From: a virus
Taxonomy: Duplodnaviria > Caudoviricetes
Length of the DNA: 53,938 nucleotides
Reading direction: 5' to 3' (one strand)
IMG/VR virus record: IMGVR_UViG_3300009514_000034
Location: 1-53,938 of that record
Shown: positions 3,157 to 29,428 of the stretch, piece after piece
Position numbering within the stretch: position 1 is the stretch's first letter
Layout: each line of letters opens with the position of its first letter
Translations under genes and position numbers: made by a program
Notes under the pieces: generated by a model
What the model saw: only the letters and a program-made list of their open reading frames with translations
What the model was told of the DNA's origin: nothing
The model's database searches: none

Positions 3157-3157
3157 C

Positions 3158-3388: not shown

Positions 3389-3434
3389 ATTGAGTAAATA
3401 TTGACTAAAATACATACATCAGATAATTTTTATG

Positions 3435-5116: not shown

Positions 5117-5293
5117 ATGAATAGGAACACAGAAAAAAAGATGAAATCATTAATTAGCGGTTTAATTGTCAATGATGACGGAAAAATTAAACAACTTGTT
5201 AATGAATTATCTGAAGCTATAATATCCGATAAAGAGGGATATATTATGGAAAGTATTTCTGATAGTTTTAAGGGAAGCGATAATGAAATCTAA
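5117..5293 (+). CDS. Small prohead-core candidate (gp67/gp68 position), absent from the ORF track
   Basis: 58-aa ORF MNRNTEKKMKSLISG...DNEI between portal and protease, preceded by TATAAACT at 5099-5106. An alternative start lies at 5141. Confidence 0.6.
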   Translation: MNRNTEKKMKSLISGLIVNDDGKIKQLVNELSEAIISDKEGYIMESISDSFKGSDNEI

Positions 5294-6047
5294 TAAAGAA
5301 ATGCCTAAAAATATTTTAAAAGAAAATACGTTAAATACTGATATTGTTCTAAAGCCTTTTTATGAATCCAGTTATAATCTTGAAGGTAAAAAGGTAAAGA
5401 GGTTAAAACTTCAGGGAACAGCTATTGTATGTGATGTTCCGGGAATTAATGGAAGATCTTATCCTAAATCTATTCTAGGGCCGGAAGTAAACAGGTTTGT
5501 AGAAAAGATGATGAAAAGGGGTCGTGCTGCTGCTGAGTTAAATCACCCCAGACTTGATGAAAAGGGTGAGGGGAAAGACTACTCAGTATTTGAAATGAAT
5601 CTTTTCAAGACCTGCGCTGTTATTGAAGAACTTTATTTCAAGGGGAATGAGCTATTTTGTAAAATGAGAGTGGTCGAAGATCACGAAGCTGGGAAAGCAT
5701 TAAAGGCACTTATAGATGCTGGATATGTTCCCGGATTTTCTTTGCGTGGGGCTGGGTCTGTTATTGATAGTGGTGATGGCCATATGGTTATCGCTGATGA
5801 TTATCGTTTAATTACTATCGATGTTGTTGGAAATCCATCGTTTGATGAACAGGCACTTATTACTCCTGTATATGAAGCAATGAAGGGTAAAAAAGTTCAG
5901 GTATTAACTGAAGCCATTGATAATACCAGAAAAGAAATTTTACTGGAAGCTGCTATACATCAAAAAATAAAAACAGGGAGAAAACAATTTAATAGAAAAG
6001 CATTGGTTAATCTTTTGGAGAACATGAATAAACAAGCATTATTCTAA
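5283..6047 (+). CDS. gp21: Prohead core protease (T4 gp21-like)
   Basis: NGRSYP, AELNHP, GFSLRGAGS and ITIDVVGNPS match the gp21 His/Ser/Asp motifs. Confidence 0.92.
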   Translation: MKSNKEMPKNILKENTLNTDIVLKPFYESSYNLEGKKVKRLKLQGTAIVCDVPGINGRSYPKSILGPEVNRFVEKMMKRGRAAAELNHPRLDEKGEGKDYSVFEMNLFKTCAVIEELYFKGNELFCKMRVVEDHEAGKALKALIDAGYVPGFSLRGAGSVIDSGDGHMVIADDYRLITIDVVGNPSFDEQALITPVYEAMKGKKVQVLTEAIDNTRKEILLEAAIHQKIKTGRKQFNRKALVNLLENMNKQALF

Positions 6048-6058
6048 GAAGGTGTTAA

Positions 6059-6949
6059 ATGAGTATTGAAATAGAAAAAATATTAACAAAGGAACAATTA
6101 AAAAATCTTTCAAAAGATTCTATTAAATCTATTAATGAATCCTTAAATAAAGTATATAATGCAAAAGTAGAACAGTTGGATAAAGAAACTTCTGATAAAT
6201 TTAATTCTTTAGTTGAAGGAATGTCTAAAAAATTCGAAGAGGATGTAAATACTGCTATAGTAGAAAGTGTAAAAAGTAATGTAAAAGAAATTCAAACTGG
6301 GAAGTTTTATAATATTATACAAGGCATGGTTAATCTTCTAGAGAATGCCGGAATTACTACCACCGAAAAAACAAAAGAATTGAGTGAAAAACTAGGAGAT
6401 GCTAATAAGAAACTGGAAGAAGCTTTCAAGGTAAGAGAAGAAATTAAAAACGAACTAGAAGAGTCTAATAAAGAAAATTACATATTGGCATCGCTTAAGG
6501 GGATGAAGCCTGAAGTTATTAATTCTGCTCTGGATTACTTCAAAGATAAAGACATGCTAGATGTTCAGGATGGATTACAGACATTTGTCGATGGTGATTT
6601 TTCTGATCTTGATTTAAGCTCGGAAGGTACGAAAGAATTAGTTGGAGAACTTGATTTAGAACAAGTTAATGATGCTCTGGATGAAATTGAAGTAGATAAA
6701 GCAGATAATGAGAAAAAGGTTTCTTTACATGAAAGCGCAGAGCAGAAGAAAACCAAAGCCACATTTGAAAGTCTGGGTAAAGGTTTGAGACAGCAAAGGG
6801 TAAGTAAATCCCCTAATGTTACTAATGACCAGTTAAAAGAATCCGAAACTATCATGGAAAATGAAGAGGGTGGCGATGTTGAATCAGACACCAAGGAAGC
6901 TATGGATAAAATTGATAAGTTCAGCGACTTGGGATACAATTTCAAATAA
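6059..6949 (+). CDS. gp22: Prohead scaffold protein (T4 gp22-like)
   Basis: Acidic, coiled-coil-like 296-aa ORF between protease and capsid, with many hydrophobic-x-E-S sites. Confidence 0.75.
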   Translation: MSIEIEKILTKEQLKNLSKDSIKSINESLNKVYNAKVEQLDKETSDKFNSLVEGMSKKFEEDVNTAIVESVKSNVKEIQTGKFYNIIQGMVNLLENAGITTTEKTKELSEKLGDANKKLEEAFKVREEIKNELEESNKENYILASLKGMKPEVINSALDYFKDKDMLDVQDGLQTFVDGDFSDLDLSSEGTKELVGELDLEQVNDALDEIEVDKADNEKKVSLHESAEQKKTKATFESLGKGLRQQRVSKSPNVTNDQLKESETIMENEEGGDVESDTKEAMDKIDKFSDLGYNFK

Positions 6950-7113
6950 TGACACCTGAACACAGAAAAGCATTGATCCAGAAATGGAAACCTGTTCTTG
7001 ATATCAATGAATCACGAAGTGATGAATATACAAGAGAAAATATGGCTATATTGCTAGAATCTCAATCCACTGTACAAAGACGATTCAAAGAAAATTCAAT
7101 TAAAAAATCCTAA
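6949..7113 (+). CDS. Mini-ORF paralogous to the major capsid N-terminus, absent from the ORF track
   Basis: 54 aa, MTPEHRKALIQKWKPVLD...MAILLESQ versus capsid SLIQKWAPVLE...MATLLENQ. TAATG overlap with the scaffold stop codon. Confidence 0.7.
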   Translation: MTPEHRKALIQKWKPVLDINESRSDEYTRENMAILLESQSTVQRRFKENSIKKS

Positions 7114-7269: not shown

Positions 7270-8700
7270 ATGGTAAAAACAAAAAGTAAAAGCTTGATCC
7301 AGAAATGGGCACCTGTACTTGAGTCTGACATTGGTTCTCCTATCAAAAGCCAGAGCGAAGCATCTGTTATGGCCACTTTGCTAGAAAACCAAGTTAAACT
7401 TAACAAAGGTTTCCTTCCTGAATCAGCTAATGTGACAGGAGACGTTGAAGTTTACCAGCAATATGCGTTACCCCTCATTCGTAGGCAGTTCCCCGAACTT
7501 CTTGCAATGAACACGGTTGCTGTTATTCCTACAACCACTCCTCAAGGAATTTACTTTGCCCTCAGATATCTTTACGATGACACAACCAAGACTACAACTT
7601 TCCGTTCAGGACAGAAAGCTGAAATTGGTTTTGATTTGTTCAGAGATCATGCGGGTGATCAAGCCCCTCCTAACGGTACTCCTTGGAGCACTGCGGAAGG
7701 CGAATTCCTTTCTAACTATCAAGAAAACGCTGTGGATGCATCAGGTTCGCCTGCTAACTTCCAGCTTCATAATCAGGATACTACTGGTTATATTGGTGGT
7801 TACAAAATCAAAAGAGCGTCCATTAAAGTTATTAAAGGGTCAATTATTGTTGGTACTCGTGCCATCAAGTCTCATTACACCCTTGAACTTCAACAGGACT
7901 TGGCTGCTGTACATGGACAGGACATCGAAGCATTGCTTCTCGAAGCACTTCAGTTCGAAATCCAACAGGAAATTGACAGAGAAATTCTTCAGGCACTAAA
8001 ATTTGCTGCTGAAACAGCAGGTTTGGGTGGAGAAGTTATTGCTACCATCGATCTAGAACCTAAAAGTGCAACTGTACAAGCTGCTACTGATGGTCGTTGG
8101 GCTGCTGAAAGAATCGCAGGTGGTATCGTTAACACGATCCTTGCCGTCTCTCAGAAGATTGCAGTAACATCAAGAATGGGTTCAGGTAACTGGGCTATCT
8201 GTTCTCCTGATATTGTCGCAGCTCTTTCCACTATGAACAGTGGTATCTATATTCCTACATACTTGCAGACAAATGTAAACCAACAGCATGGTGGTGGCGT
8301 AGCCGAAGCCGGATCTTTGGTTGGTGGAAGCATTAAAGTATATCGTGACATCTACGCTGAAGAGTCTTATGCCCTTGTCGGGTACAAAGGTCCTCGTCAG
8401 GGTGAGTCTGGTATTATCTTTATGCCTTACATCCCTTACATTTTCACAAAAACTGCTGGTCAGGAAGATGGATCACCTCGATTGATTGTTAAATCTCGTT
8501 ATGCTATCGTAGCTAACTTGCTTGGTGCAGGTCAGTTCTACAGGCTCGTAAGATTTGATTCAATCAGTAGTGCGATTCTCGGTATCGATTCCAATGCTGA
8601 CACTGGGGATGACTATCCTTGGGAAGTTTCTGGAGCAACATACGATGCAGAGGAAAGTCTCGGTGGAGTTGGATCAGGGGATGGAGATACTTCAATATAA
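7270..8700 (+). CDS. gp23: Major capsid protein (T4 gp23-like)
   Basis: LIQKWAPVL, LPLIRR, YTLELQQDLAAVHG, EIDREI and VGYKG...IFMPYIP...SRYA are gp23 hallmarks. Confidence 0.95.
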   Translation: MVKTKSKSLIQKWAPVLESDIGSPIKSQSEASVMATLLENQVKLNKGFLPESANVTGDVEVYQQYALPLIRRQFPELLAMNTVAVIPTTTPQGIYFALRYLYDDTTKTTTFRSGQKAEIGFDLFRDHAGDQAPPNGTPWSTAEGEFLSNYQENAVDASGSPANFQLHNQDTTGYIGGYKIKRASIKVIKGSIIVGTRAIKSHYTLELQQDLAAVHGQDIEALLLEALQFEIQQEIDREILQALKFAAETAGLGGEVIATIDLEPKSATVQAATDGRWAAERIAGGIVNTILAVSQKIAVTSRMGSGNWAICSPDIVAALSTMNSGIYIPTYLQTNVNQQHGGGVAEAGSLVGGSIKVYRDIYAEESYALVGYKGPRQGESGIIFMPYIPYIFTKTAGQEDGSPRLIVKSRYAIVANLLGAGQFYRLVRFDSISSAILGIDSNADTGDDYPWEVSGATYDAEESLGGVGSGDGDTSI

Positions 8701-8730
8701 CCATCACCTTCCTATTTACAAGTATGAAAG

Positions 8731-8755
8731 AGCCTTGGGAAACCAAGGCTTTTTT
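8731..8755 (+). terminator. Rho-independent terminator after the capsid gene
   Basis: AGCCTTGG-GAAA-CCAAGGCT followed by a T run. Confidence 0.85.
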
Positions 8756-8804
8756 ATTGCTATTTTTTTCAGTTTTATTTATATTTAATTAAAATTCTAT
8801 CGAA

Positions 8805-10343
8805 ATGTCTGAAAAAGAACCTAAAAAGACCGTTTTTTGTCACGTATGCAAACAACAAACAAATCTAGTCATTGATAGTTTCTCCAGATATCACTTAAAA
8901 CCAAGTCATAATATCACTTTAAAAGAATATTATGATAAATTTATCAAAAAAGAAAATGAAGATATATGCAATAACGCAAATTGTCGTAATAAAACACTAT
9001 TTACCAGATTTTCTAAAGGCTACCGAGAATATTGTTCCAGACAATGCAGGAACAAGTGTAAAGACAGCATAAATAAAATAAAACAAAGTAATCTAAAAAA
9101 TCACGGCCATGAATCCCCATTCGTTGCATATAAAGAAAAAATTAAGAAAACCAATTTAAAAAAATATGGTTATGCGAATCCCTTTGAATCAAAAGAAATG
9201 CAGGATAGATGTAAAGATGTTATATATACAAAATACGGGGTGCGTAATATATCCGAAAGCGAAGACATTAAAAGAAAGAAACGAAAAACTTACGGGAAAA
9301 ATTATTGGAATACTTTTTTACTAAAACTGAAATTTAAAAAAATAAAACCTTTATTTAATTGCGAACATTATATATCCAGAAATCCCTTTAACTTTAAATG
9401 CTTGCGTTGTGGTAAAAAATTTATCAGAAACAGAACTGACCCTCAAGAAATTTTTTGTGGGTGTTTGGCAAATAGATCAAAGCACGAAGATGAAATAACA
9501 GATTATCTGAAAAGTATAGGTATAAAAAATATTGTCTCTAATAAATATTTTATAAATGATATAACCAAAAAGAGAAAATATGAATTAGATATTTATCTAC
9601 CCGAATATAAATTGGGTATAGAATTTCACGGCATATTTTGGCATTCAGATTTGTATGTAGACAAAAACTATCATCAGGATAAGTATTTATATTTTAAAAA
9701 TAAAGATATACAGGTAATTCAGATATTTCAAAATGAATGGCTTAATAAAGAACCCATAGTCAAATCATTACTAAAAAATAAATTAGATGTTAGTAACAAA
9801 ATATACGGAAGAAAATGTGTTGTTAAAGAAATAAGTTCTGATGAATATAGATTATTCCTAGAACATAATCATATACAAGGATATGCCCTGACAAAACACA
9901 GATTCGGATTATTTCATAATGATGAACTTGTATCCGTTATGGGATTTTCTAAAAGCAGATTCAGTGATGATTATAGTTATGAAATAATAAGGTTCTGTAA
10001 TAAATTAGAATGTTCCGTTATAGGCGGTTTTTCAAAATTATTAAAATATTTTACATTAAAAACTAACCCAAAAACTATTGTATCTTATTCTGATGTTCGC
10101 TATTTTGATGGTAAAGGATACTTATCTAACGGATTTACACAGGTACATTTGAGTAAGCCTAATTACTTTTATTTTAAACCTAATGAAATGGTACTATATA
10201 ACAGGTTTAACTTCCAAAAGCACAAATTAAAGGACAAATTAAAGAAATTTGATCCTGATAAGACCGAATATCAAAATATGCTGGAAAACAAATATCTAAG
10301 GATATTTGATGCCGGTAATCTGGTATTAGTAAAAAATATTTAA
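8805..10343 (+). CDS. Free-standing homing-endonuclease-like protein (Zn fingers, KKYG repeats, PD-(D/E)XK/Vsr-like domain)
   Basis: CHVC and YCSRQC, repeats of NLKKYG, ELDIYLPEYKLGIEFHGIFWHS, and a C-terminal FLEHNHIQG...YEIIRFC domain typical of Hef-like phage endonucleases. Confidence 0.75.
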   Translation: MSEKEPKKTVFCHVCKQQTNLVIDSFSRYHLKPSHNITLKEYYDKFIKKENEDICNNANCRNKTLFTRFSKGYREYCSRQCRNKCKDSINKIKQSNLKNHGHESPFVAYKEKIKKTNLKKYGYANPFESKEMQDRCKDVIYTKYGVRNISESEDIKRKKRKTYGKNYWNTFLLKLKFKKIKPLFNCEHYISRNPFNFKCLRCGKKFIRNRTDPQEIFCGCLANRSKHEDEITDYLKSIGIKNIVSNKYFINDITKKRKYELDIYLPEYKLGIEFHGIFWHSDLYVDKNYHQDKYLYFKNKDIQVIQIFQNEWLNKEPIVKSLLKNKLDVSNKIYGRKCVVKEISSDEYRLFLEHNHIQGYALTKHRFGLFHNDELVSVMGFSKSRFSDDYSYEIIRFCNKLECSVIGGFSKLLKYFTLKTNPKTIVSYSDVRYFDGKGYLSNGFTQVHLSKPNYFYFKPNEMVLYNRFNFQKHKLKDKLKKFDPDKTEYQNMLENKYLRIFDAGNLVLVKNI

Positions 10344-10344
10344 T

Positions 10345-10375
10345 AAAAAGGGTGGGGTACTTCATTGTTGTTTTC
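10345..10375 (+). repeat. IS terminal inverted repeat (left in window)
   Basis: AAAAAGGGTGGGGTACTTCATTGTTGTTTTC. Confidence 0.8.
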
Positions 10376-10393
10376 ATAGAAAGTTCAGTTTTT

Positions 10394-10401
10394 TATAAAC
10401 T
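10394..10401 (+). promoter_or_regulatory. Putative late promoter TATAAACT inside the IS
   Basis: Motif upstream of leader-family gene 1. Confidence 0.65.
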
Positions 10402-10429
10402 AAAAGAAACAAACTATTGGACTTGAAAA

Positions 10430-10906
10430 ATGAACAATAAAGAGAAATTTGAGAACTTTCTGGAATCCCTCAAGGGTAACGGACAAGATGTATTGATTGA
10501 ATCAGTAAAACAGGGATTTGAAGTCTGTTTTGAATCAAGTGAAAAAGAACAGGCCAATGCGTTATACAAGGAATTAGTATCAGAATATGGTAGATCGCAG
10601 GTAGATGATACTGTAAAAAAAATGCCTAAAAAAGTTGGTAGTTGGAATAAAGTTGCTTTTTTAAATGAAGTTAAAAGAGCAATTGACTCTGGAGATATAG
10701 ACGGATATATTGAAAAAGAATTGGAAATCGGTAAGGAAGTAAAGGAAAGGTCTAAAAGATCCGTGAAGGAACAATTACAAGATTTATCTGAAGAATATGG
10801 AGAAGACGAAGTTAAAGAAATTTTAGGAAAAATTGGTAAAAAAAGATTCCTTCAAAATAAAGATGAATATTTGCGTAAAATTAGACATGCTTTGGATATG
10901 AATTAA
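10430..10906 (+). CDS. Leader-family protein 1 (putative head-internal cargo)
   Basis: MNNKEKFENFLESLKGNGQDVLIESVKQGFEVCFES leader; the cargo holds a duplicated ~42-aa unit. Confidence 0.8.
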   Translation: MNNKEKFENFLESLKGNGQDVLIESVKQGFEVCFESSEKEQANALYKELVSEYGRSQVDDTVKKMPKKVGSWNKVAFLNEVKRAIDSGDIDGYIEKELEIGKEVKERSKRSVKEQLQDLSEEYGEDEVKEILGKIGKKRFLQNKDEYLRKIRHALDMN

Positions 10907-10921
10907 TAAATATTAATTCTG

Positions 10922-11881
10922 TTAAATCCAGTTATATAAATACTCAATCCCGACAGGGCGATCAACGATCCCCAGATGCATAGCCGGGGTCATAATCATC
11001 TTATATTTCTTACCCCCTTCTCTTACGGTGTAGCTTTTCTGTAAGAAGTAATTACTGAAAAATTTATAGATATTCAATCGGGCATTAAGCATTTTATTCT
11101 CTTTACAGATATGCCATGATTTCCTTCTCAGCATTGAGATATTGGCTCTCATACAGGCAATCATGTTATTCACAGAGAACAGCTTGTTTTTGTTATCAGC
11201 CACCGAAGCATCGTAGACATGGTGAACAGCCAAATCCCCAAATAACTCCTTCATGTAGCCACCATAAGCAGGTTTCTTGTCGGATTCGATAACGATCCTG
11301 CCTTCTGGTTTCATAGTTCTACAGGTCTTAATTACCCCTTTGATGTACTTATCTTTTCTCTTGATTTCAGGAGCATTTTCTGCGTTATAGGAATCTTTTA
11401 GATGGGGATAGTGGCTTCTGGATGACACTCTAACAGATTGTACATCAACCAAAAAGTGGCTATCCACTTCCACCACAGCCGGGATAGATATTGTATGTAC
11501 AGACTTCCGTTCAATGGTTTCAAACTCATCAAACTGGAATCTGGGTTTGTTTTCCCTTGTCCAGTTACCCATCATTTTCTTATGAAAATCGTTACAGTGT
11601 TTTTCCAGCCAGAGAATCTTCTTCTGGATGGTTTTCTTGGTGGTTCGGTGGAGAATACCCAGTTTCCTGACACCCATTCCCATTGAGATGGTTTCCATCA
11701 CCTTGCGGTTCAGATCGGGGCGTTTCTGTCTGTATGTTAAGTGGAAGAACTGGTCAGAAAATGACTTGAAGCAATGAGTACATTTATATCGCTGGACTTT
11801 CTGATGGTTTCTTTTGCGCTGGTAACGCCCATCTTTTCTAATTTTCTCTTTCCCACACTTAGGACAATTTTTAATTTCCAT
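10922..11881 (-). CDS. Single-ORF IS1-like transposase
   Basis: N-terminal CPKC...QRYKCTHC zinc ribbon, HTH (GMGVRKLG...KKTI) and DDE core (QFDEFET, IESDKKPAY); GC content visibly higher than the flanks. Confidence 0.82.
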   Translation of the reverse strand: MEIKNCPKCGKEKIRKDGRYQRKRNHQKVQRYKCTHCFKSFSDQFFHLTYRQKRPDLNRKVMETISMGMGVRKLGILHRTTKKTIQKKILWLEKHCNDFHKKMMGNWTRENKPRFQFDEFETIERKSVHTISIPAVVEVDSHFLVDVQSVRVSSRSHYPHLKDSYNAENAPEIKRKDKYIKGVIKTCRTMKPEGRIVIESDKKPAYGGYMKELFGDLAVHHVYDASVADNKNKLFSVNNMIACMRANISMLRRKSWHICKENKMLNARLNIYKFFSNYFLQKSYTVREGGKKYKMIMTPAMHLGIVDRPVGIEYLYNWI

Positions 11882-11910
11882 GTATAACTCTCAGACAGGG
11901 GTGCTATACT

Positions 11911-11939
11911 ATTGTACACCAATTTCACTGAGAAGTCAA
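11911..11939 (-). promoter_or_regulatory. Sigma70-type promoter of the transposase
   Basis: Minus-strand TTGACT-N17-TACAAT upstream of the start at 11881. Confidence 0.55.
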
Positions 11940-11979
11940 TTTGTTTCGTAAGTCGTTATTTTAGATTGGATTAAGAGGG

Positions 11980-12010
11980 GAAAACACCATTATACTACCC
12001 CACCCTTTTT
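11980..12010 (-). repeat. IS terminal inverted repeat (right in window)
   Basis: Reverse complement reads AAAAAGGGTGGGGTAGTATAATGGTGTTTTC. Confidence 0.8.
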
Positions 12011-12014
12011 AATA

Positions 12015-12054
12015 ATATCCCATACATAAAAAATATGTTCTATGTATGGGATAT
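12015..12054. repeat. Perfect 14-bp inverted repeat with a 12-nt loop
   Basis: ATATCCCATACATA (12015-12028) and TATGTATGGGATAT (12041-12054); the right arm contains the ATG at 12046. Confidence 0.8.
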
Positions 12055-12213
12055 AAAGAACCCCCACATTCAGAAGCTGGTATCATATACATGCCTTATA
12101 TAGGGGCTATTTTTACCGAATTAGGACCCCCAACACAACCTAATTACCCAAATGATGATGTACCTTCTGATGATTACTATGCGGATATTGAAGAAGAAGA
12201 AGATAACTTTTAA
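12046..12213 (+). CDS. Mini-ORF or gene remnant copying the capsid C-terminal GYKG...MPYI motif, absent from the ORF track
   Basis: 55 aa, MGYKEPPHSEAGIIYMPYIGAIFTE versus capsid VGYKGPRQGESGIIFMPYIPYIFTK, followed by an acidic tail. Confidence 0.55.
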   Translation: MGYKEPPHSEAGIIYMPYIGAIFTELGPPTQPNYPNDDVPSDDYYADIEEEEDNF

Positions 12214-12262
12214 TGAAAAATAAAATATTTTTAATATAAACATATTAAAAACGGAGTATGTA

Positions 12263-12802
12263 ATGGAAGAATTTAAATTTGGTGAATCATATCAAGAAAA
12301 GCCACAAGAAGCCAATCAAGCCCCAAAAATGGAAAATTATAATCCTAATGATGGCTTAGGACAGCCGGGAGTAGACCCCAATAACATCCCCCAGCCCCAG
12401 TTTCTGGACCTTAATAATCCCCAGAATTTCAGCAATGTTGGTAATAACCCACAACAGCAACAACCTTATATGCCACAATATCAGGTTCCTCAACAACCAA
12501 CGGGACCTAACTTTGAGGGAATTAAAGATAAAGCTGGAATGGGTTCTAAAATAAATAGCATAATGGAAATGGGTGATAAAATTGATGTCGATGTTAATAC
12601 AGGAGATTCTGCCGTAAATTCTGGTAAATATGGTATAACAAAAGCTGTAAGTTCTTTACATGAAGCTATTAAAATGTTAAAGGATATTGATTACTGGATA
12701 CCCAAGGGTAAAGAAGAGTATGCCCCACAATTAAAAAAGATTTCCCAGCCTATCACTAAGGCACTGGAAGCATATGTAAGTAAGGTGGAATCCCTAAGCT
12801 AA
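12263..12802 (+). CDS. Hypothetical late protein with a Q/P/N-rich N-terminus
   Basis: 179-aa ORF; TATAAACA at 12235-12242 and a GGAG RBS. Confidence 0.7.
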   Translation: MEEFKFGESYQEKPQEANQAPKMENYNPNDGLGQPGVDPNNIPQPQFLDLNNPQNFSNVGNNPQQQQPYMPQYQVPQQPTGPNFEGIKDKAGMGSKINSIMEMGDKIDVDVNTGDSAVNSGKYGITKAVSSLHEAIKMLKDIDYWIPKGKEEYAPQLKKISQPITKALEAYVSKVESLS

Positions 12803-12862
12803 ATTAATTTTATAGTATTCATATTATAAACTTATGGTAAGGATACTCATAAGGAACATAAT

Positions 12863-13351
12863 ATGTCGTTTTACGGTCAAGGTAATTTTAAACTCAAGCA
12901 CGAATATCGTGATTTTTACACCGATGTTCAAAGAAATACTGAAAGAATAGGTGATACTGGTAAGTCAAGCGAAGAATTCAAAGACAGGTCATATGACCAG
13001 TTCAAAATGCATGACTTCAATGAATTAGCTAAAAATCAGGATAAATTCACACCCCCCGATGAAATGTACGGAACCATCAAACGTGATAATTTCAGAAATT
13101 ATAACAGGATGGAATATGATAAACCTGAACGTCACGATGGTAAAGAGCATGCCGATGTTAAAAAGGAAGTCGAAGCTAAAACTGAAGTAACCGTTGATAA
13201 GTTACTGAATGCTTTCGAAGACCAAGGTTATACTCTAAACAGCACCGCAAGCACTGTTAAAAATACGCCAATTGAAAAAGATGACTATGATGGTCAGATG
13301 AGATTGGTTATTCTGGATAGCGATAAAGAACAACCTACGAAAAGGATATAA
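12863..13351 (+). CDS. Hypothetical late protein
   Basis: 162-aa ORF; TATAAACT at 12825-12832 and an AAGGA RBS. Confidence 0.7.
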   Translation: MSFYGQGNFKLKHEYRDFYTDVQRNTERIGDTGKSSEEFKDRSYDQFKMHDFNELAKNQDKFTPPDEMYGTIKRDNFRNYNRMEYDKPERHDGKEHADVKKEVEAKTEVTVDKLLNAFEDQGYTLNSTASTVKNTPIEKDDYDGQMRLVILDSDKEQPTKRI

Positions 13352-13816
13352 ATGAATTATAAAAAATTTAAGAATTTTTTAGAATCCCTGAAAGGACACG
13401 GGAAAGATCCCTTGATAGAATCTATCAAGCAGGGATTTAAAGCATGTTTTGAATCTATTGAAGATGAGGCTGATAAAGATATCGAAGCATACTTTGATAA
13501 AAAAGTTCCTCCCGATATTCAAAGGTTAATAAATCAGGCCACTACAGATTTATACACGGGTCCTTTAGAAGAGGAAGATTATCCCGGATTTCAAACGGCT
13601 TCTGCAAAAATACAAGAATGGGTTGATAATGAACTATCCGAAGTGTGGTATGATACCCAATCAGGATATGTTTCTGAAGAAAAACCTAAAGGATACGAAG
13701 ATGAAGATAGTGGAGAATGGGTAGAACCCTTCTGGGAAGACTATTATCATTATGATAAGAAACATGTAGTACAATTAGTTTTAGGAAATGAATTAGCCAA
13801 TACATTATATCGATAG
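13352..13816 (+). CDS. Leader-family protein 2
   Basis: MNYKKFKNFLESLKGHGKDPLIESIKQGFKACFES leader; acidic, aromatic-rich cargo. Confidence 0.8.
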   Translation: MNYKKFKNFLESLKGHGKDPLIESIKQGFKACFESIEDEADKDIEAYFDKKVPPDIQRLINQATTDLYTGPLEEEDYPGFQTASAKIQEWVDNELSEVWYDTQSGYVSEEKPKGYEDEDSGEWVEPFWEDYYHYDKKHVVQLVLGNELANTLYR

Positions 13817-13824
13817 GATTTATT

Positions 13825-14172
13825 ATGAATAAAATAAAGAAGTTTGAAACCTTTTTAGAATCCCTTAAAGGACAGGGACAAGATTCTTTAATTGAATCCG
13901 TTAAAAAAGGATTTAAAGCTTGTTTCGAATCTTTTAATGAAGAAAGTATGAAAGATGCTATTTTAAACTGGACTCGTGGAGCTGATAATCCAGTTACAAA
14001 TCCATTTCCTTTAGGACAATTATTGGCCGGAACTACTAGCAGAGATTCTGGAATATTTAAAATGAAACGTGGTCCTAAATTGTATTACTACATACAAAGA
14101 CACAAATGGGACGATGAAACCAAAACTCTTAACGAACTTGAGTCCCCCATTGTAACTTTGGAGCCTGCTTAA
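13825..14172 (+). CDS. Leader-family protein 3
   Basis: MNKIKKFETFLESLKGQGQDSLIESVKKGFKACFES leader. Confidence 0.8.
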   Translation: MNKIKKFETFLESLKGQGQDSLIESVKKGFKACFESFNEESMKDAILNWTRGADNPVTNPFPLGQLLAGTTSRDSGIFKMKRGPKLYYYIQRHKWDDETKTLNELESPIVTLEPA

Positions 14173-14260
14173 TGAACAAGATAGAAAAATTTGAAACCTT
14201 TTTAGAATCCCTTAAAGGACAGGGACAAGATTCTTTAATTGAATCCGTTAAAAAAGGATT
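13843..14260 (+). repeat. 71-bp identical direct repeat (13843-13913 and 14190-14260)
   Basis: The leader-coding DNA TTTGAAACC...AAAAAAGGATT is identical in genes 3 and 4. Confidence 0.9.
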
Positions 14261-14549
14261 CAAAGTATGTTTTGAAAATGAAGAATCCAGCTTAAAAGAT
14301 GAAATGAAATCATATTTGATACAAACATATAGTGGATTAATGGATACAACTGATGATGGTTTTAATTTTGATATGGAAGCTGCTATTTATTGGTTTGCTA
14401 ATCATTATCATGGAGGTCAATGGTCCGAGCTATACAGCATATTATCAACTTCTCAATATAATCCCGGTAGAATGGTCAACGGACCTGAAGACGAAGGAGA
14501 ATCTACAAAAATGATGTATGATTCTCTTGTAGATAAATACGGAAAATAA
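14172..14549 (+). CDS. Leader-family protein 4
   Basis: MNKIEKFETFLESLKGQGQDSLIESVKKGFKVCFEN leader; the cargo contains AIYWFANHYHGGQWSELY. Confidence 0.8.
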   Translation: MNKIEKFETFLESLKGQGQDSLIESVKKGFKVCFENEESSLKDEMKSYLIQTYSGLMDTTDDGFNFDMEAAIYWFANHYHGGQWSELYSILSTSQYNPGRMVNGPEDEGESTKMMYDSLVDKYGK

Positions 14550-17500
14550 TTATAAAATATCCCTAACATCAGGGGTATTTTCGTTCTGAATCTCTTTAAT
14601 AGTTCTCTCTACAGTAGCATCTCCCTGTAATTCTTCGATAACGGGTTTCTCTCTGGTAAGTTTAGCTTTCTGGATACCCTGTAATTGGGCGTTAGAAACC
14701 AGCTTTTCAAATACAGATTGATTCTCATTCCTATCCTGTTCAGGATCAAAATCTATATCTTGGTTAACTTCTTCAATGTTAGGTCCTAGTCCCCTTACAG
14801 TTCCGTCATTAGTTACTTTCTGATCATTTATTTTCATTTTCTGAGTCATATCTTTTACTTCTTCTGGGGTAAGAAGTTCTCCAGAATCATTTTCAATTAA
14901 TGTCTGGGTTCTGATTATTCCAAACTCATTTTCAATTAAATTAATCTGGTCGGCATTGGGGCTTTCCAAGAAATTATCGTATAGAAAATCAATATCCAGA
15001 TTTTCAATTAATTCTTTTATTTCGTTGTATTCTTCTACTATACTATCCTTAACTATGATATGTAATAACAGTGCATCTTCCCCAATGGGTTCACCCGCTT
15101 CATTGTAGCCGGAAATTACCGGAGCATCCGATGTAATTATTTCTAAAGGCTGAACTTCTTCTGGTACAAAGACACCTTGACTGTTGTATCTTCCAAACTG
15201 AACACTATCTTCATTAATCTGTTTTTCCCCGAATGTGTTCCCGTTTCCCTCGGTATTTAATGAACGAACATCCGCTACTGGGATAGAAATTTTACCGTCA
15301 TGTAATGTTATGTAGGACGTATCTCCGCTGTCCTTTATAAATATTTTTATATTTTGGTACTCTTCTTCTCCCAGAAATTTTACCACGAAATCAATGGGGT
15401 TTGTTTCGGCCACACTACTGATTAAGTAATCAAACTTTTCAATATAATCAGAAGAAAGAATTCCACGAACGGCATTGAAATCTCCTATAAGCGAATAATA
15501 ATCCACCAGTTGCTGGAAAGAAATTGGATTTTTAGCCTTCCATTCTGGAACAGTTCCAATTAATCGTCTGCCGTGCGCATGCATCTTCTGCCTAACCATG
15601 AATAAAAATTCCTGTATATCTTTTAATACAAGGTTACTTGGAGTATTAAATTGATTTATGTCCTGTGGGGAAACATATCTTTCTCCGTTAATAACTATGG
15701 CATCCTGATAGGCCGTGCTACTTGCTCTTATGTATGGTTTATCATCATCGATTTCAACATCATCAACAATAACATATCCTCTCTGGTCCACATTTACGTA
15801 AGCATTGGCAACGACAGGATCTTGTTGGTTAAATGCTGCCTGTCTGAATTTCCAAGCATCCATGTGCTTTATTCCTATGGGAAGAAATTCCCATACAAAT
15901 AAATCGGGTCCCATGACCAATTGAGCACACCAGATAACGTTCATAGGTTCCCCGAATTTTCCCAGTTTAGCCCCCTCAATAAAGGCAGTTGATACATCAA
16001 CCAATTTACAAAACTCTTCTTCGTCACCTTCTTCAATGGGAGTTACGCCATCCTCTTTTGTAATTAATATTTTTACAGAAAGGCCATAATTATGCCATGA
16101 AAGAAAACTGCTTGAAGTTCCGCCCGTCTGTAAGTTTTCCTGTGATTCCCATGAACGGGTGGTTTCTATTAACTTTACCCTGCTGGGATTAAACTCAGAT
16201 TTTAGTATCTCCAATAAAAACTGAACCTTGTTATAAACATCCACTCCCTTTCTTAAATCCGAAATTTCTTTACTACTTTCATGAAAAATCTCGTGGCCTG
16301 CGGGAATTTCGCTGAGTTGTACTGTGGTATCGTTATTGGTTGATACTGTTATAGGTAATTCTCCTTCTCTGGAAGAAAATTCTGATTGATCAAAAGGGCC
16401 ATAATTAAAATAAGCTTCATCCCTTAAATCATCATCAAAAGGAAGGTGGGGCATGTTAAATACTATTTCAACATCCTCACGGGATATATCTGGCTGTGTT
16501 TCATCCAGAGGATTTATAACAGAGTTAAGAGTTGCGCTTCCGGTAGGGTCTGGTGTATTGGCTAATTCTTCTTTAGATAATTCTAACGAATATGACAATG
16601 TATTATCATCTATAATATTCGGTCTGAAAAATCCATTGTATATGGCTTGATCTATTCCAGAAATTTCTATCTGTAAAGTGTCTTCAGTGGCCATATGAGG
16701 TTCTTCAGTTACTACAAGAACATGTCCAGCAATAGGTTCAACTCTACTTAATGTTATGGTAGAATCTATGGGGTTTTCAATTAAATTAACCCCAGCTTCT
16801 CTTTCATTGGGTCTGAATAAAGATAAAACTCGGGTATCAATAAATCTCAATTCAACCCACCTGACACCGTTGTCAATTCTTTTATATCTGGCTCTCCTGA
16901 ACCATCCCCTTCTTCGAGTTCTTATTGTCTTAATACCAAAATCAACGGGCAATAAAATTCGGGCTAATTTTATGTTAGGATTATTTTTCTCTACTAATCT
17001 TCTTTTATCATTCTTAGTATTATTGTCTATTAACATATCTTTGTTTTCGAATATTGATTCACTGGTAAATCTTTCATACCATTCAATCTTTTTAATTAGT
17101 AATTCGAATTCATTTGTTCTGGTCCTGATATCAGATAATGCGAAGTTAGTAAATATGCCGGATAATACCCCAGAAAATCCCTTGAACTGTGTGTTTATCT
17201 TTTTGATGTTTTCAACCAATTCAATGGGGTCGAATCCGGGGGTAATTACAAGATCCTGTTCTTTTATTATTGATATTACGCCATCATCATTCTCTGGTAA
17301 TTTGCTCAACATATCATCAATCGGAGAATCAGAATTAGTATCCAGTGTGGAAGAAGGATCTATTTCGAGTAAATTTATATGTCTAAGTTCGGGGGTCAGT
17401 GTATTTTCTGGAATAAATGATATATCTACCAAGTTACTCTTACCTGTCGGATCGAGTACGTGTTTGCCGTCTTGGCCTATCAGAAATTTCCCCTGATGAA

Positions 17501-18554
17501 CTACAGGATTTCCTGTTTTCGGATCTATCAAGGGTCTGGGATTGCTTGTAAAACTTTTCTGTAATATTTCTTTTATTTCATCAAAGAACCTACCTGCGAA
17601 GGGCATTGAATCTATGGCAGTAATTAAGTTAGAAATACTGGTGATTAACTGATTTCTTAAATCATTAGCAGAATCAAATTGGGCTTTGAAAACTTCTTTC
17701 ACAGACATGTGTACGGGCGAAATATTTTCGCTATCAATTTCCGTTAATAATCTTCCTATAAATGCGTTGCCTGCTGTTATTGATGTATTGAAATTATCTG
17801 CCCTAGTTACCCCGGATGCATTAATATCATTTGTCCCAGAAGGCTTTGATTCAAGAAATTCAGTAACCAGTACATCAATACCTACTGAATTTAATTTATC
17901 CTTTAATCTTTTCAATGAATCAGTATAAAATTGTCTGGTTATATATCCGGCTGCGTCATTATCACTAATGCCCATTTTAAAAGCAGGGGTTAATGAAGGT
18001 ATGTCATATCTCCCCCTGTCAGTTATTGTAAAATCATTTGTATCCCACATTCCAAGGGCTGCATAAACTTCTCTGTCAATTAAAGGCCCTCTGGTAGAAC
18101 CCAGAATATCATCCTTCATTTTGTTGTGCTGGGGCACAATGGGAATTTCGTAAGATACTACTTCCAGATTTTCATCTATCCCGGCAGAAAATAATGTTGC
18201 TGCTTTGGGGGTTCCTGAACTATCGGCAGAATCTCTGTAATTTATCTGCTCTACAAGGTCTACAACGGGTTCCCCCCTTAAATGTACAATGGCTTCGGAT
18301 GCTTCAGTACCAAATCCGGTAGAAGGGTCTGTAGATACTTCAAATCTCTTTACATCCCGCTCAAATATAAAATTAACCTTATCGTCAATAATTTGGTTGA
18401 GATTAATGTCTTCTACTTCCCCGTCTTCATTGACATTAATGTTGGCTCCGTCAGCCCTTACGTTTAAACCGGATAAATCTAAGTTTAAATCGTTCTCAAC
18501 GGTTATTTCTTTTCTATAGTTATTAAAATCAATTTCTGCCATGTATAGTCTCAA
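14550..18554 (-). CDS. Large putative virion (tail/baseplate) protein with a degenerate M15-peptidase-like domain
   Basis: 1334 aa. LIETTRSWESQENL...SWHNYGLSVKI resembles M15 peptidases. Late motif on the minus strand at 18572-18579. Confidence 0.6.
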   Translation of the reverse strand: MRLYMAEIDFNNYRKEITVENDLNLDLSGLNVRADGANINVNEDGEVEDINLNQIIDDKVNFIFERDVKRFEVSTDPSTGFGTEASEAIVHLRGEPVVDLVEQINYRDSADSSGTPKAATLFSAGIDENLEVVSYEIPIVPQHNKMKDDILGSTRGPLIDREVYAALGMWDTNDFTITDRGRYDIPSLTPAFKMGISDNDAAGYITRQFYTDSLKRLKDKLNSVGIDVLVTEFLESKPSGTNDINASGVTRADNFNTSITAGNAFIGRLLTEIDSENISPVHMSVKEVFKAQFDSANDLRNQLITSISNLITAIDSMPFAGRFFDEIKEILQKSFTSNPRPLIDPKTGNPVVHQGKFLIGQDGKHVLDPTGKSNLVDISFIPENTLTPELRHINLLEIDPSSTLDTNSDSPIDDMLSKLPENDDGVISIIKEQDLVITPGFDPIELVENIKKINTQFKGFSGVLSGIFTNFALSDIRTRTNEFELLIKKIEWYERFTSESIFENKDMLIDNNTKNDKRRLVEKNNPNIKLARILLPVDFGIKTIRTRRRGWFRRARYKRIDNGVRWVELRFIDTRVLSLFRPNEREAGVNLIENPIDSTITLSRVEPIAGHVLVVTEEPHMATEDTLQIEISGIDQAIYNGFFRPNIIDDNTLSYSLELSKEELANTPDPTGSATLNSVINPLDETQPDISREDVEIVFNMPHLPFDDDLRDEAYFNYGPFDQSEFSSREGELPITVSTNNDTTVQLSEIPAGHEIFHESSKEISDLRKGVDVYNKVQFLLEILKSEFNPSRVKLIETTRSWESQENLQTGGTSSSFLSWHNYGLSVKILITKEDGVTPIEEGDEEEFCKLVDVSTAFIEGAKLGKFGEPMNVIWCAQLVMGPDLFVWEFLPIGIKHMDAWKFRQAAFNQQDPVVANAYVNVDQRGYVIVDDVEIDDDKPYIRASSTAYQDAIVINGERYVSPQDINQFNTPSNLVLKDIQEFLFMVRQKMHAHGRRLIGTVPEWKAKNPISFQQLVDYYSLIGDFNAVRGILSSDYIEKFDYLISSVAETNPIDFVVKFLGEEEYQNIKIFIKDSGDTSYITLHDGKISIPVADVRSLNTEGNGNTFGEKQINEDSVQFGRYNSQGVFVPEEVQPLEIITSDAPVISGYNEAGEPIGEDALLLHIIVKDSIVEEYNEIKELIENLDIDFLYDNFLESPNADQINLIENEFGIIRTQTLIENDSGELLTPEEVKDMTQKMKINDQKVTNDGTVRGLGPNIEEVNQDIDFDPEQDRNENQSVFEKLVSNAQLQGIQKAKLTREKPVIEELQGDATVERTIKEIQNENTPDVRDIL

Positions 18555-18616: not shown

Positions 18617-19144
18617 TTATTCCAAATCTCCCCAATCAAGGGAATCTATATTTGGCATGGAAGACTGATTATCGGTGATAAACTCCTGATCTTCAGATGT
18701 AGTGTCTTCATATGAAAAATTCTGGTTAAATAATACGGTATTTTCTGAGTATTGCTTACATTTTCGCCAACTTTGGATGAAAGCATTTCCAATTATCATG
18801 GCAAAATAATTATAGGGGTCGTTTTTACCACTTTTAGATTTTTCGGGGTCAAAATTGTGGGCATATTTAAGTACATGTTCTATAGCTCTTCCCCGAAATT
18901 CTTCTTTCCAGTCTTCAGAGTATCTTCGCCAAGAACCCGATCCTAACATCTTGTCTACTATAATAATAACAATTTCAGCCAAATCTCTGGGCATGGAATA
19001 ACTGGGATTTAATTTCTTTTTCCACTTATAATCCATTACCAGTCCCAGCAGGTATTTTTTCTCAATCCTGCCGTTTCGCATTTCGGCTAGTTTAATTTCT
19101 CTTTCTGAAAAGGTTACTTTTTCGTTTTTCTTTGGTCTTCCCAT
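18617..19144 (-). CDS. gp55: Late transcription sigma factor (T4 gp55-like), copy A
   Basis: WKEEFRGRAIEHVLKYAHNFDPEKS...PYNYFAMIIGNAF matches the gp55 NFDPEKS..NPFAYFTQII..AF motif; acidic C-terminal tail. Confidence 0.8.
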   Translation of the reverse strand: MGRPKKNEKVTFSEREIKLAEMRNGRIEKKYLLGLVMDYKWKKKLNPSYSMPRDLAEIVIIIVDKMLGSGSWRRYSEDWKEEFRGRAIEHVLKYAHNFDPEKSKSGKNDPYNYFAMIIGNAFIQSWRKCKQYSENTVLFNQNFSYEDTTSEDQEFITDNQSSMPNIDSLDWGDLE

Positions 19145-29412: not shown

Positions 29413-29428
29413 TATATTTCCCTTTAAA

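Follow-up and report, generated by a model that had tools for sequence, protein, structure and literature searches.

An intact transporter insertion sequence with a phage-adapted passenger gene in a T4-like jumbo phage

A stretch of 53,938 nucleotides from an uncultured phage (here called the window; the source contig is metagenomic and rated 14% complete) contains an intact insertion sequence (IS) of 1,661 bp, at positions 10347-12007, with 29-bp terminal inverted repeats. The element is a 'transporter' IS, with a passenger gene inside its ends, and it is adapted to phages: the passenger gene follows a late-promoter-like motif and begins with a leader that is shared with genes of the phage outside the IS. 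As a whole, the element is best explained as a phage-adapted transporter IS with a capsid-targeted passenger, a reading to which we give a probability of roughly 0.75. Transporter IS are a known kind of element, and what is new here is the phage-adapted form, with a passenger that combines a late-promoter-like motif and a leader. An intact DDE-type transposon has retained such a passenger across about 35% protein divergence, with a change of cargo on the way. This points to a new route by which phages may trade proteins that are probably injected. Transposases in virulent phages have been reported to be very rare (PMC8136500).

Ends of the element and target-site duplication

A repeat search of the window detects inverted arms at 10340-10375 and 11980-12015, 36 nt long and 83% complementary. 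For the 31-nt arms 10345-10375 and 11980-12010, a manual count on the sequence gives 26 of 31 identical positions, the same number as in the preliminary description, and the arms do enclose the transposase gene, TATAAACT and a convergent leader gene, as had been proposed there. The best local match between the two element ends has a score of 42, while 100 shuffles gave at most 26. The 12-nt core of the repeats, AAGGGTGGGGTA, has exact matches in the 53.9-kb window only at the two element ends; with up to two mismatches it is matched four times, no more often than in shuffles, and the end pair therefore counts because of its position and its relatives rather than by word statistics. The passenger-side repeat (10347-10375, plus strand) begins with AAAGGGTGGGGTACTTCATTGTTG, and the transposase-side repeat (11980-12007, minus strand), read as its reverse complement, begins with AAGGGTGGGGTAGTATAATGGTG. 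The two ends are also distinguished by their inner sequences, TTCATTGTTG on the passenger side and TATAATGGTG on the transposase side. A single copy of the element is present in the 54 kb.

The 8-bp word TTTAATAA stands flush with both inverted repeats, in perfect copies at 10339-10346 on the left and 12008-12015 on the right. One base is ambiguous, so that a boundary at 10347-12008 with a 7-bp duplication is equally possible. This direct repeat had been regarded at first as possible but weak. It is now strong, because two further copies of the element, described below, have flush duplications of their own. The three duplications, TTTAATAA, TAAATGTT and AAAAAATTAG, are different words in the same register relative to the ends, the left copy in the window having the same offset from the end repeat as in the other two loci. 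The end-to-end unit, including the passenger, is very probably the unit that moves.

Copies of the element elsewhere

A second copy is found in another viral contig of 45 kb (L010), between the genes for tRNA-Leu and tRNA-Ser, and encodes a transposase 65% identical to that of the window. Its 8-bp duplication, TAAATGTT, is flush with the ends (159-166 and 1692-1699), and both its passenger-side and its transposase-side end are identical to the matching window end at 23 of 24 positions. When the two copies are aligned with MAFFT, similarity starts and stops at the terminal repeats and covers the transposase gene, the leader and the promoter, with none in the cargo or the flanks; identity in the interior, over the transposase gene, is roughly 55-80% per 60 columns, compared with the 23/24 of the ends. 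The passenger of L010 is likewise convergent with the transposase gene and has TATAAACT upstream and the same leader, here on an unrelated cargo, for which a protein search returned no relative except the L010 cargo itself. The IS-borne leader gene is the only one in the 45-kb contig. The alignment indicates that the cargo part was exchanged at some time.

A bacterial copy (L011) has matching ends and a transposase 56% identical to that of the window, and lies between aldolase-like and chloride-channel genes. It is flanked by a flush 10-bp duplication, AAAAAATTAG (1667-1676 and 5549-5558), and carries, in the same convergent position, the gene for an 862-aa Eco57I/N6_Mtase protein (an Eco57I-like methylase). 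The window, L010 and L011 copies thus occupy three unrelated sites in three records. A fourth locus (L013; transposase 62% identical) has a similar transposase-side end and, where the contig stops, the last part of a convergent ORF; PHROGs gave only weak matches on its flanks, and its phage status is putative. In the wider family, L099 has a convergent 264-aa ORF as passenger, and simple IS, whose terminal sequences differ, occur only among very distant relatives, at about 21-28% identity.

Complete phage-borne copies number two in the collections searched, those of the window and L010. A degenerate pattern for the end repeats, run over IMG/VR, matched three stretches, among them the L010 contig with both ends. 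The matches in the other two, L018 and L020, are single, lie inside ORFs of unrelated phages richer in G+C, and were judged to be chance. Apart from the element and the leaders, the flanks of L010 and L013 do not resemble the window, and therefore do not reveal the kinship of their host phages.

These copies bear on several points of the preliminary description. The same ends and transposase recur with the passenger swapped, in both L010 and L011. Copies at 56-65% identity do not end right after the transposase stop; rather, their ends enclose the passenger. The suggestion that the IS carries leader-cargo cassettes between phages gains structural support from L010, with its same ends, leader and promoter and its other cargo. 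The other suggestion, of an independently mobile cassette inserted inside the IS, is not needed for the window copy: promoter, leader and adjoining end are homologous in the window and L010. Differing cargoes from copy to copy, and a leader shared with genes outside the IS, also led us to reject the passenger as an accessory gene for transposition.

The transposase

The transposase gene (10922-11881, minus strand) encodes 319 aa in a single, full-length and uninterrupted ORF, and alignment, profile and structure searches resolve the protein into an N-terminal zinc ribbon with four Cys, a DNA-binding part of helix-turn-helix-like helices, and a catalytic domain with the RNase-H fold. Its AlphaFold model has a pLDDT of 92.8. 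A Foldseek search with this model returned 13 matches at E <= 0.001, all integrases or transposases, with retroviral integrases, Mos1 and the ISCth4 transposase at the top, and the predicted fold is that of an RNase-H-like (DDE-type) catalytic domain. The predicted catalytic residues are D118, D201, N238 and R245, the last of these seven residues after N238. Among 33 sequences, D118, D201, R245 and K260 are invariant, as are C34 and C37 of the four conserved Cys, and N238 is present in at least 90%; the third catalytic position is Asn rather than Glu across the family. The window protein keeps every family-invariant residue, and all relatives also have a single ORF with no frameshift.

Only 10 relatives were found among 5.8 billion clustered proteins. 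A profile built from these relatives reached 1,903 representatives at the 50% identity level, bringing out a large transposase family that is covered by no Pfam model, is reached by NCBIfam only below cut-off and is only remotely IS1-like. In a tree, the bacterial copy lies beside a clade made up of the three phage-associated copies (support 95/94), and the window element belongs to a rare clade of the family resident in T4-like jumbo phages. The wider family occurs in 25 of 101 genomes near that of L011, with up to 10 matches per genome. A tblastn search of 50,697 deposited phage genomes with the transposase gave no match, and a single-protein scan of IMG/VR with it gave no relative.

The assignment as 'IS1-like' made at the outset finds only partial support. 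The IS1 model NF033558 matches the zinc ribbon and the helical DNA-binding part in 10 of 11 close members; in the window protein it scores 38.4 bits over residues 6-94 only. Among 25 sampled distant representatives it matches 20, all below cut-off, and for some of these the match extends as far as the catalytic part. Scores are 30-52 bits against a cut-off of 100 bits, with 52 bits for the best distant relatives. Pfam yields no transposase family at threshold, DDE_Tnp_IS1 included, in the window protein or in the 25 sampled relatives. In classical IS1, which is under 1 kb long, a programmed -1 frameshift links two reading frames, whereas the present family has elements of 1.5-3.9 kb, different end sequences, a single ORF (319 aa in the window) and Asn as third catalytic residue. 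Duplications of 8-10 bp in A+T-rich DNA are compatible with the behaviour of IS1.

A sigma-70-like promoter match, TTGACT-17-TACAAT (10 of 12 positions), lies at 11911-11939 on the minus strand, 29 nt before the ATG of the transposase gene. Such a match occurs upstream of the transposase gene in four of six family loci, at differing distances. With 3 sigma-70-like matches in the region against 6.5 in shuffles, there is no enrichment, and this one is a weak promoter candidate, a bare consensus match.

The passenger gene and its leader

The passenger gene (10430-10906, plus strand) encodes 158 aa, converges on the transposase gene and lies inside the element ends. It is preceded by TATAAACT, a late-promoter-like motif of the phage, at 10394-10401 on the plus strand, 28 nt before its ATG. 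This motif occurs 15 times in the window, compared with 4.4 expected and with no shuffle in 100 that reached 15, and 13 of the 15 copies have, on their own strand, an ORF start no more than 60 nt downstream. The passenger follows the motif, as do 12 further gene starts, with the portal gene and a baseplate wedge gene among them; at least three of the genes that come after it are leader genes, the passenger included. The passenger is presumably read from TATAAACT by a gp55-like late sigma factor encoded in the window.

Codons 1-35 of the passenger (10430-10534, plus strand) form the leader, MNNKEKFENFLESLKGNGQDVLIESVKQGFEVCFE, which is common to at least 10 ORFs of the window and 28 database proteins; the window proteins that bear it are otherwise unrelated. 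A set of 39 leader proteins was gathered, and FLESLKG served as the anchor for aligning 37 of them. Most columns of the leader are invariant, the last being Glu35 with 37 of 37, and every later column reaches at most 11 of 37. Within the leader are three φ-x-E motifs, FLE, LIE and C(F/Y/M)E, each with an invariant Glu. The leader is N-terminal in the 37 aligned proteins, with the exception of L108, which has an N-terminal extension. The IS-borne leader shares 62-79% identity with the 8 resident leaders, and as much as 94% with proteins from the database; because the database set was chosen by likeness to the IS-borne leader, these values lead to no conclusion on whether the leader was copied from a resident gene. 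In five large related phage contigs, the leader family gave one weak match (E 0.0018) in one and was not found in the other four, one of which is rated 100% complete.

The remaining 123 aa (10535-10906, plus strand) form the cargo, which is predicted to be all-helical. Neither Pfam, NCBIfam nor PHROGs has a match to it, the ESM Atlas gave no usable feature match and structural TM values of at most 0.41, and a fold search in BFVD returned 0 matches with E <= 0.001. A cargo module of the 'KIGKK(K/R)FLQ' type is also present in three other leader proteins.

By analogy with T4, the leader is probably a capsid-targeting or protease-cleaved propeptide: its three φ-x-E motifs, with an invariant Glu as the last residue, fit a propeptide of the T4 type. 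T4 gp21 is described as cutting after L/I-X-E, and the capsid-targeting sequence is given as the only common feature of the T4 internal proteins (PMC9026906, PMC3012670). The window encodes a gp21-like prohead protease at 5283-6047 (head maturation protease, phrog_207, E 1e-36), together with gp55-like sigma factors, a portal and a gp23-type capsid protein. A complex prediction for the prohead protease with leader residues 1-50 scored 0.00, which is evidence neither way.

Insertion site

The IS was inserted at the stop codons of a homing-endonuclease gene, within a 3.5-kb stretch downstream of the major capsid gene that is missing from relatives. The left copy of the duplication overlaps the TAA TAA stop codons of this upstream gene. 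Among 60 related capsid-gene loci, 16, with capsid proteins 70-81% identical, have the capsid gene followed without interruption by homologues of the genes at 12263 and 12863. None of the 60 has a match to the transposase or the leader, in keeping with the initial remark that an IS in a T4-like head region is unusual. None of the 16 syntenic relatives has the insertion, which is thus younger than the split of these lineages.

The empty site in related phages, proposed at the outset as a check, is represented by 16 IS-free syntenic loci. It rests on gene order rather than on a nucleotide-exact junction, because no relative was found that has the homing-endonuclease gene and lacks the IS; the best endonuclease relatives reach at most 48% partial identity. 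When 8000-14500 was compared by blastn with 50,697 phage genomes, only the homing-endonuclease gene was matched, at 65-67%. Both flanks of the IS are phage DNA.

Relation to known systems

Transporter IS (tIS), which carry passenger genes, were described in work on the IS1595 family and on how it is related to IS1 (Siguier, Gagnevin and Chandler 2009, cited in PMC3129680). As in tIS, the window element has one transposase gene and one gene not related to transposition between short terminal inverted repeats, with a short target duplication outside. Its N-terminal zinc ribbon may be of the IS1/IS1595 type. The model for ribbons of that type, NF050000, finds 10 of the 11 members of the family, at best with E 1.2e-10, and gives the window protein E 9.1e-5 and 22.9 bits, below its 28-bit cut-off. 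Unlike tIS, the element resides in a virulent-type T4-like jumbo phage, its passenger is fitted to the phage by a late-promoter-like motif and a protein leader and is always convergent with the transposase gene, and its transposase fails to reach the curated cut-off in each of the library models tried.

The window passenger is transposon-borne, whereas the internal-protein genes of T4 are not. In several respects it resembles the genes for T4 IPI-III and Alt as these are described, with a conserved N-terminal propeptide-like leader on otherwise unrelated small proteins, a leader that ends at Glu in a motif of the L/I-X-E type, an encoded gp21-type protease and a gene content that is highly variable between related phages (PMC9026906, PMC3012670). 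The T4 targeting sequence is given as 10 residues and the T4 internal proteins are described as basic (PMC9026906), unlike the 35-aa leader with its three φ-x-E motifs and the mostly acidic cargoes found here. Resemblance in sequence between a leader of 35 aa and a targeting sequence of 10 aa is not expected.

Gene exchange in T4-type phages is usually explained by homing endonucleases or by recombination between regulatory motifs that recur in the genome. PeSL cassettes work by recombination between repeated regulatory motifs and have no transposase, terminal inverted repeats or target duplication, all of which the window element has. These promoter/stem-loop cassettes are described as mediating modular gene shuffling in T4-type phages (PMC2839356, PMC4122927), and, as is proposed for the window element, they account for the swapping of small variable genes that have their own regulatory signals. 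IS of another transposase class, the IS200/IS605-family ISCaje1-4, have been reported in the T4-like Campylobacter phages CP220 and CPt10 (PMC2853527). They share with the window element a residence in virulent T4-like phages, and their sites differ between closely related genomes; unlike it, they are mostly TnpB-only, and the account of them in PMC2853527 reports no phage-fitted passenger.

Proposed mechanism and alternative explanations

The transposase would bind the end sequences, roughly 24 bp each, and place everything from one end to the other in A+T-rich DNA by a cut staggered by 8 bp, or perhaps by 7 bp in the window copy and 10 bp in the bacterial copy. Fold, ends and duplication are seen, and from such sequence comparisons we infer the activity of the element and its transfer between phages. 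The window copy would have landed on the stop codons of the homing-endonuclease gene. Transcription from TATAAACT would then yield the 35-aa leader with its 123-aa cargo; the leader would take the cargo into the prohead core and be cut off by the gp21-like prohead protease, and the freed cargo would stay with the DNA and be ejected into the next host. In this way the element could drop a cassette of promoter, leader and cargo into phages that share the late sigma factor and the protease, and a passenger useful to the phage would pay for the keep of the element.

In its full extent the proposal is tentative. It holds that a transposon lineage has specialised for T4-like jumbo phages with a cassette of late promoter, capsid-targeting leader and exchangeable cargo, and spreads packaged or injected anti-defence or takeover proteins between co-infecting phages that share leader and protease. 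The leader would serve as a recombination handle for cargo from the phage's own pool of leader genes, and the bacterial sister with its restriction-modification gene would show one and the same vehicle arming phage and host alike in their conflict. If the leader is a capsid-targeting signal, the element would be a vehicle that equips a phage, in one step, with a new protein that is packaged and probably injected, and it would work in any phage with the same late sigma factor and prohead protease. This offers a concrete and testable route for the fast turnover of internal-protein repertoires.

It is doubtful, though a serious competitor, that the element is a real transporter IS whose leader is some other N-terminal module, for oligomerisation, docking to a phage or host structure, or regulation, with a passenger that is neither packaged nor ejected. 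A leader of 35 aa is far longer than the T4 targeting sequence of 10 residues (PMC9026906), the resident cargoes are acidic (pI 4.1-5.7), the second leader helix in the model runs into the cargo (H20-53), and four of five large related phages with the same head genes gave no leader match. A propeptide is favoured by the N-terminal position of the leader in all aligned proteins except L108, by a conservation that stops at the invariant Glu, matching the gp21-type cutting rule as described (PMC9026906), by the gp21-like protease encoded in the window, and by TATAAACT before at least three leader genes as well as before the portal and baseplate genes. Far less probable still, and contradicted by the L010 and L011 copies and the phage flanks, is a plain IS beside a resident leader gene, with the left end at 10347-10375 a product of chance, or, as a variant, a chimera assembled from phage and bacterial IS sequences. 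The A+T-rich context would favour chance, as would a 12-nt core that is not rare once two mismatches are allowed and the distal end abutting the transposase stop, as in a plain IS, in six of nine sampled most distant family members. Yet L010 repeats the full architecture at another site, with the end-specific sequences and a duplication of its own, and L011 repeats it with another passenger. A chimera fits poorly with two flanks of phage DNA and a passenger that has the phage's own leader and promoter motif.

The element could also be a former transposon that is immobile in phages and was kept only because the passenger, or the insertion itself, is of use or does no harm, which is unlikely. 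One copy in 54 kb would suit such a relic, as would an Asn in the third catalytic position and the divergence of the two phage copies to 65% identity, which therefore give no sign of recent spread. Against this, the transposase ORF is full length with all family-invariant residues, the ends are conserved at 23/24 while identity in the transposase gene is down to roughly 55-80% per 60 columns, the two copies of the target duplication match perfectly, and all 16 syntenic relatives lack the insertion; as for the Asn, the family that shares it is multi-copy in bacteria.

The element and its ends

The insertion sequence (IS) at 10347-12007 is bounded by one long inverted repeat (10340-12015; 36 nt, 83% complementary, arms 1,604 nt apart in a repeat search), and the 31-nt inverted repeats of the preliminary description, identical at 26 of 31 positions, were borne out by a hand count on the sequence. 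Inside the repeats are an ORF for a 319-aa transposase on the minus strand (10922-11881) and, convergent with it, a 158-aa passenger ORF on the plus strand (10430-10906), preceded by the promoter-like motif TATAAACT at 10394-10401. A target duplication, TTTAATAA, lies flush with the repeats at 10339-10346 and 12008-12015, and its left copy overlaps the stop codons (TAA TAA) that end the upstream homing-endonuclease gene. The IS with a passenger gene inside its ends, as originally proposed, is real. Judged from its sequence, the end-to-end unit, passenger included, is a transposon that we infer to have moved.

The element belongs to a known kind, the transporter IS. Its clade is not represented by any Pfam model and resembles IS1 only remotely. 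The new part is its adaptation to a T4-like phage, which merits follow-up. Full-text searches of open-access papers brought up no T4-like phage with a DDE-type transposon whose passenger is adapted to the phage; a passage in the nearest report found concerns IS200/IS605 elements of Campylobacter phages CP220 and CPt10 (PMC2853527).

The source of the window is identified as a T4-like phage by its encoded gene set: head genes (portal, gp21-like head maturation protease and a gp23-type major capsid protein; Pfam Gp23, E 4e-67), two gp55-like late sigma genes, and replication and recombination genes (gp46/47-like nucleases, UvsX, replicative helicase, SSB and primase). CheckV puts the completeness of this 53,938-bp IMG/VR virus record at 14%. 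Contigs of capsid-gene relatives reach 278-422 kb, and the phage is therefore probably a jumbo phage. Two adjacent minus-strand ORFs (18617-19144 and 19150-19539; 175 and 129 aa) both match phrog_234 (late sigma factor) over the same part of the profile, which marks a tandem pair and not a single gene broken in two.

Other copies of the element

Only 10 relatives of the transposase, 44-65% identical, were found among 5.8 billion clustered proteins. Profile-guided scans matched 65 stretches in IMG/VR, 9 in 185,579 species genomes and 140 in JGI metagenomes, giving as relatives one locus (L010, a viral contig copy), one locus (L011, a bacterial copy) and six loci, respectively. One of the six JGI loci repeats the contig of L010, and the others are short or cut.

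The L010 transposase is 65% identical to that of the window. Its arms (162-193 and 1665-1696) repeat the arm sequence of the window element. Between them lie the transposase gene and, convergent with it, a gene for 118 aa, whose product shares its leader (MNKKEKFESFLESLKGNGEDKLIESVKKGFQVCYE) with the window passenger and has an unrelated C-terminal part. A target duplication, TAAATGTT, is present at 159-166 and 1692-1699, and the element sits between tRNA-Leu and tRNA-Ser. When the two elements were aligned with 60-nt flanks (MAFFT), similarity began at AAAGGGTGGGG and ended at CCCCACCC(C)TT, covering, along with the leader and the promoter region, the transposase gene, where about 32-49 columns agree in each 60-column block; none was seen in the cargo (the rest of the passenger) or in the 60-nt flanks. 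Each end is identical at 23 of 24 positions between the copies, and the two ends differ from one another in the same way in both, the transposase-side end carrying TATAATGGTG and the passenger-side end TTCATTGTTG. The retention of this end-specific difference, together with the 23/24 identity, argues for selection on both ends.

The bacterial copy, in a contig of a 4.6-Mb assembly, encodes a transposase 56% identical to the window's and a convergent 862-aa Eco57I/N6_Mtase passenger, and is flanked by an aldolase-like gene and a chloride-channel gene. Its arms (1677-1704 and 5521-5548) are flanked by a 10-bp duplication, AAAAAATTAG. The arm pair scores 31 against a shuffle maximum of 32, no better than shuffles in so long a stretch, and the ends were accepted because of their family-like sequence, position and flush duplication, not the arm score. 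A partial copy (L013, 62% identical) keeps the same transposase-side end and reaches into the 3' end of a convergent ORF, where its contig stops. The distal end was not found in L014-L016, each with only a few hundred bases left in its contig. In two of these, which stand further out in the close transposase family, the transposase gene is followed by a small same-strand ORF of 70-84 aa (L015, 1294-1506; L016, 943-1197, plus strand), and the contig stops short of any distal repeat; the products look alike by eye in a 'VSELK' stretch.

The transposase family

The transposase has no Pfam match. NCBIfam NF033558, 'IS1 family transposase', matches residues 6-94 only, with 38 bits against a cut-off of 100, and the NCBIfam IS1/IS1595 zinc-ribbon domain is also matched; 10 of 11 family members show the same pattern. 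The label IS1-like is upheld only in part, by N-terminal IS1/IS1595-type matches, and limited by scores that are all below the NF033558 cut-off and by the lack of any Pfam match.

A profile built from 11 sequences, the transposase and its relatives, found 1,903 representatives (50% identity) at E <= 1e-3 and 98 at E <= 1e-30, and a few close sequences, at 196 bits or more, are set apart by a gap from the remainder at 172 bits or less. Among 25 sampled distant representatives, 20 match NF033558 with scores under the cut-off, in some cases as far as profile position 170-177 of 199, and none reaches a Pfam threshold. These proteins (P0041-P0190 and kin) are a large IS family outside the Pfam and NCBIfam cut-offs. 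D118, D201, Y206, R245, K260 and N277 are invariant in 33 aligned sequences, and at least 90% of them retain N238; N238 and R245, seven residues on, occupy what we take to be the positions of the catalytic Glu and Arg in the IS1 InsB motif. The AlphaFold model is confident (pLDDT 92.8), and its 13 Foldseek matches at E <= 0.001 are retroviral integrases, Mos1 and the ISCth4 transposase. A maximum-likelihood tree places the window, L010 and L013 proteins in one clade (95/94) with L011 as sister (85/85). Ahead of the transposase gene, the sigma-70-like promoter amounts to no more than a consensus match.

Of 101 genomes neighbouring that of L011, 25 hold members of the wider family, a single genome giving up to 10 matches. 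At six of nine distant loci the distal repeat lies -20 to +14 nt from the stop codon, as in a plain IS, and the end sequences differ; at the other three it lies 129 nt downstream (one), 924 nt downstream (L099) or was not found (one). On the reverse strand of L099, a bacterial genome locus, a 264-aa ORF (2425-3219 of the reversed locus) lies between the repeats, convergent with the transposase gene; it has a TGxxxGIG-type N-terminus and, by eye, the look of a short-chain dehydrogenase. Passengers in convergent orientation may therefore be a recurrent feature of the wider family.

The insertion site

The window was compared with 60 loci encoding a capsid protein 59-89% identical to its own. Neither the transposase nor a leader protein was matched in any of the 60. 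Absence counts only in 16 of them (L022-L033, L035, L037, L070 and L072; capsid protein 70-81% identical), because many others end shortly past the capsid gene. In these 16 the order runs uninterrupted from scaffold to capsid to homologues of window genes 12263 and 12863, and about 3.5 kb of the window (8701-12262) is therefore extra DNA. It comprises a Hef-like homing-endonuclease gene (8805-10343, plus strand; 512 aa; phrog_3339, E 1e-117; Pfam DUF7487), the IS, a hairpin and a 55-aa ORF. The IS lies between the homing-endonuclease stop codons and the hairpin (12015-12054), which directly follows it and has a 14-bp stem (RNA fold -18.1 kcal/mol, z -5.8; 0 of 200 shuffles fold as well). Before insertion, the hairpin would have followed those stop codons.

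Distant homologues of the endonuclease (24-34% identical) lie beside the capsid gene in 6 of the 60 loci, some as two or three tandem copies, so this neighbourhood looks like a recurrent homing site. The 55-aa ORF (12046-12213, plus strand) repeats capsid residues 370-394 (15/25 identical, 60%) before turning into a divergent acidic tail. A 54-aa ORF (6949-7113, plus strand) located between the scaffold gene and the capsid gene is paralogous to the N-terminal propeptide of the capsid protein (38% over 52 aa); its matches in 26 related loci are each only the N-terminus of the capsid gene itself, and the extra copy is thus special to the window. Together, the two fragments suggest that a capsid allele and the homing-endonuclease gene replaced an older capsid gene, both ends of which were left behind.

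The passenger and the leader family

The motif TATAAACT occurs 15 times in the window against 4.4 expected, a count reached in 0 of 100 shuffles, and 13 of the 15 copies lie within 60 nt upstream of a same-strand ORF start, including those of the portal gene, a small gene preceding that of the protease, a baseplate wedge gene and two leader genes besides the passenger. L010 has three copies (0.7 expected), one of which precedes its passenger.

The leader, the N-terminal 35 aa of the passenger (10430-10534), is found on at least 10 window genes, among them 10430 (the passenger), 13352, 13825, 14172, 25959, 26279, 28651-29412, 29429 and 33338; a regular-expression search combined with BLAST located them. 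Besides the passenger, at least nine leader genes, at 13352-14549, 25959-26761, 28651-29893 and 33338-33712, have unrelated, mostly acidic cargoes (pI 4.1-5.7). The three at 13352-14549 are missing in the closest relatives (L022, L023 and L025), where the 12863 homologue is directly followed by that of the large gene 14550-18554. A protein database gave 30 leader matches, two of them the window's own and nearly all over the leader only. Of 39 leader proteins collected, 37 were aligned on the FLESLKG anchor and two lack it in exact form; columns are mostly invariant up to Glu35 (37/37), and every later column reaches at most 11/37. The leader holds three φ-x-E motifs (FLE, LIE and C-F/Y/M-E), each with an invariant Glu. 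Passages in two papers state that T4 gp21 cleaves after L/I-X-E, that the capsid-targeting sequence is the only common part of T4 internal proteins, and that giant-phage propeptides contain several cleavage sites (PMC9026906, PMC3012670).

The window cargo is all-helical in a predicted model (pLDDT 85), with no family or fold match in Pfam, NCBIfam, PHROGs, ESM Atlas or BFVD. It has a 'KIGKK(K/R)FLQ' module of about 45 aa in common with three database proteins, P0012-P0014. P0014 and three other leader proteins share one longest contig (23.6 kb), which hints that this cargo type also exists as a resident gene.

The leader family was not found in four of five large related phage contigs, and the fifth gave one weak match. 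Besides the window, a pattern scan of IMG/VR found it in two contigs only. In the viral contig L108, the leader motif lies inside a 195-aa ORF (2830-3417, plus strand) after about 55 extra N-terminal residues, reflecting either a miscalled start or an extended-propeptide variant.
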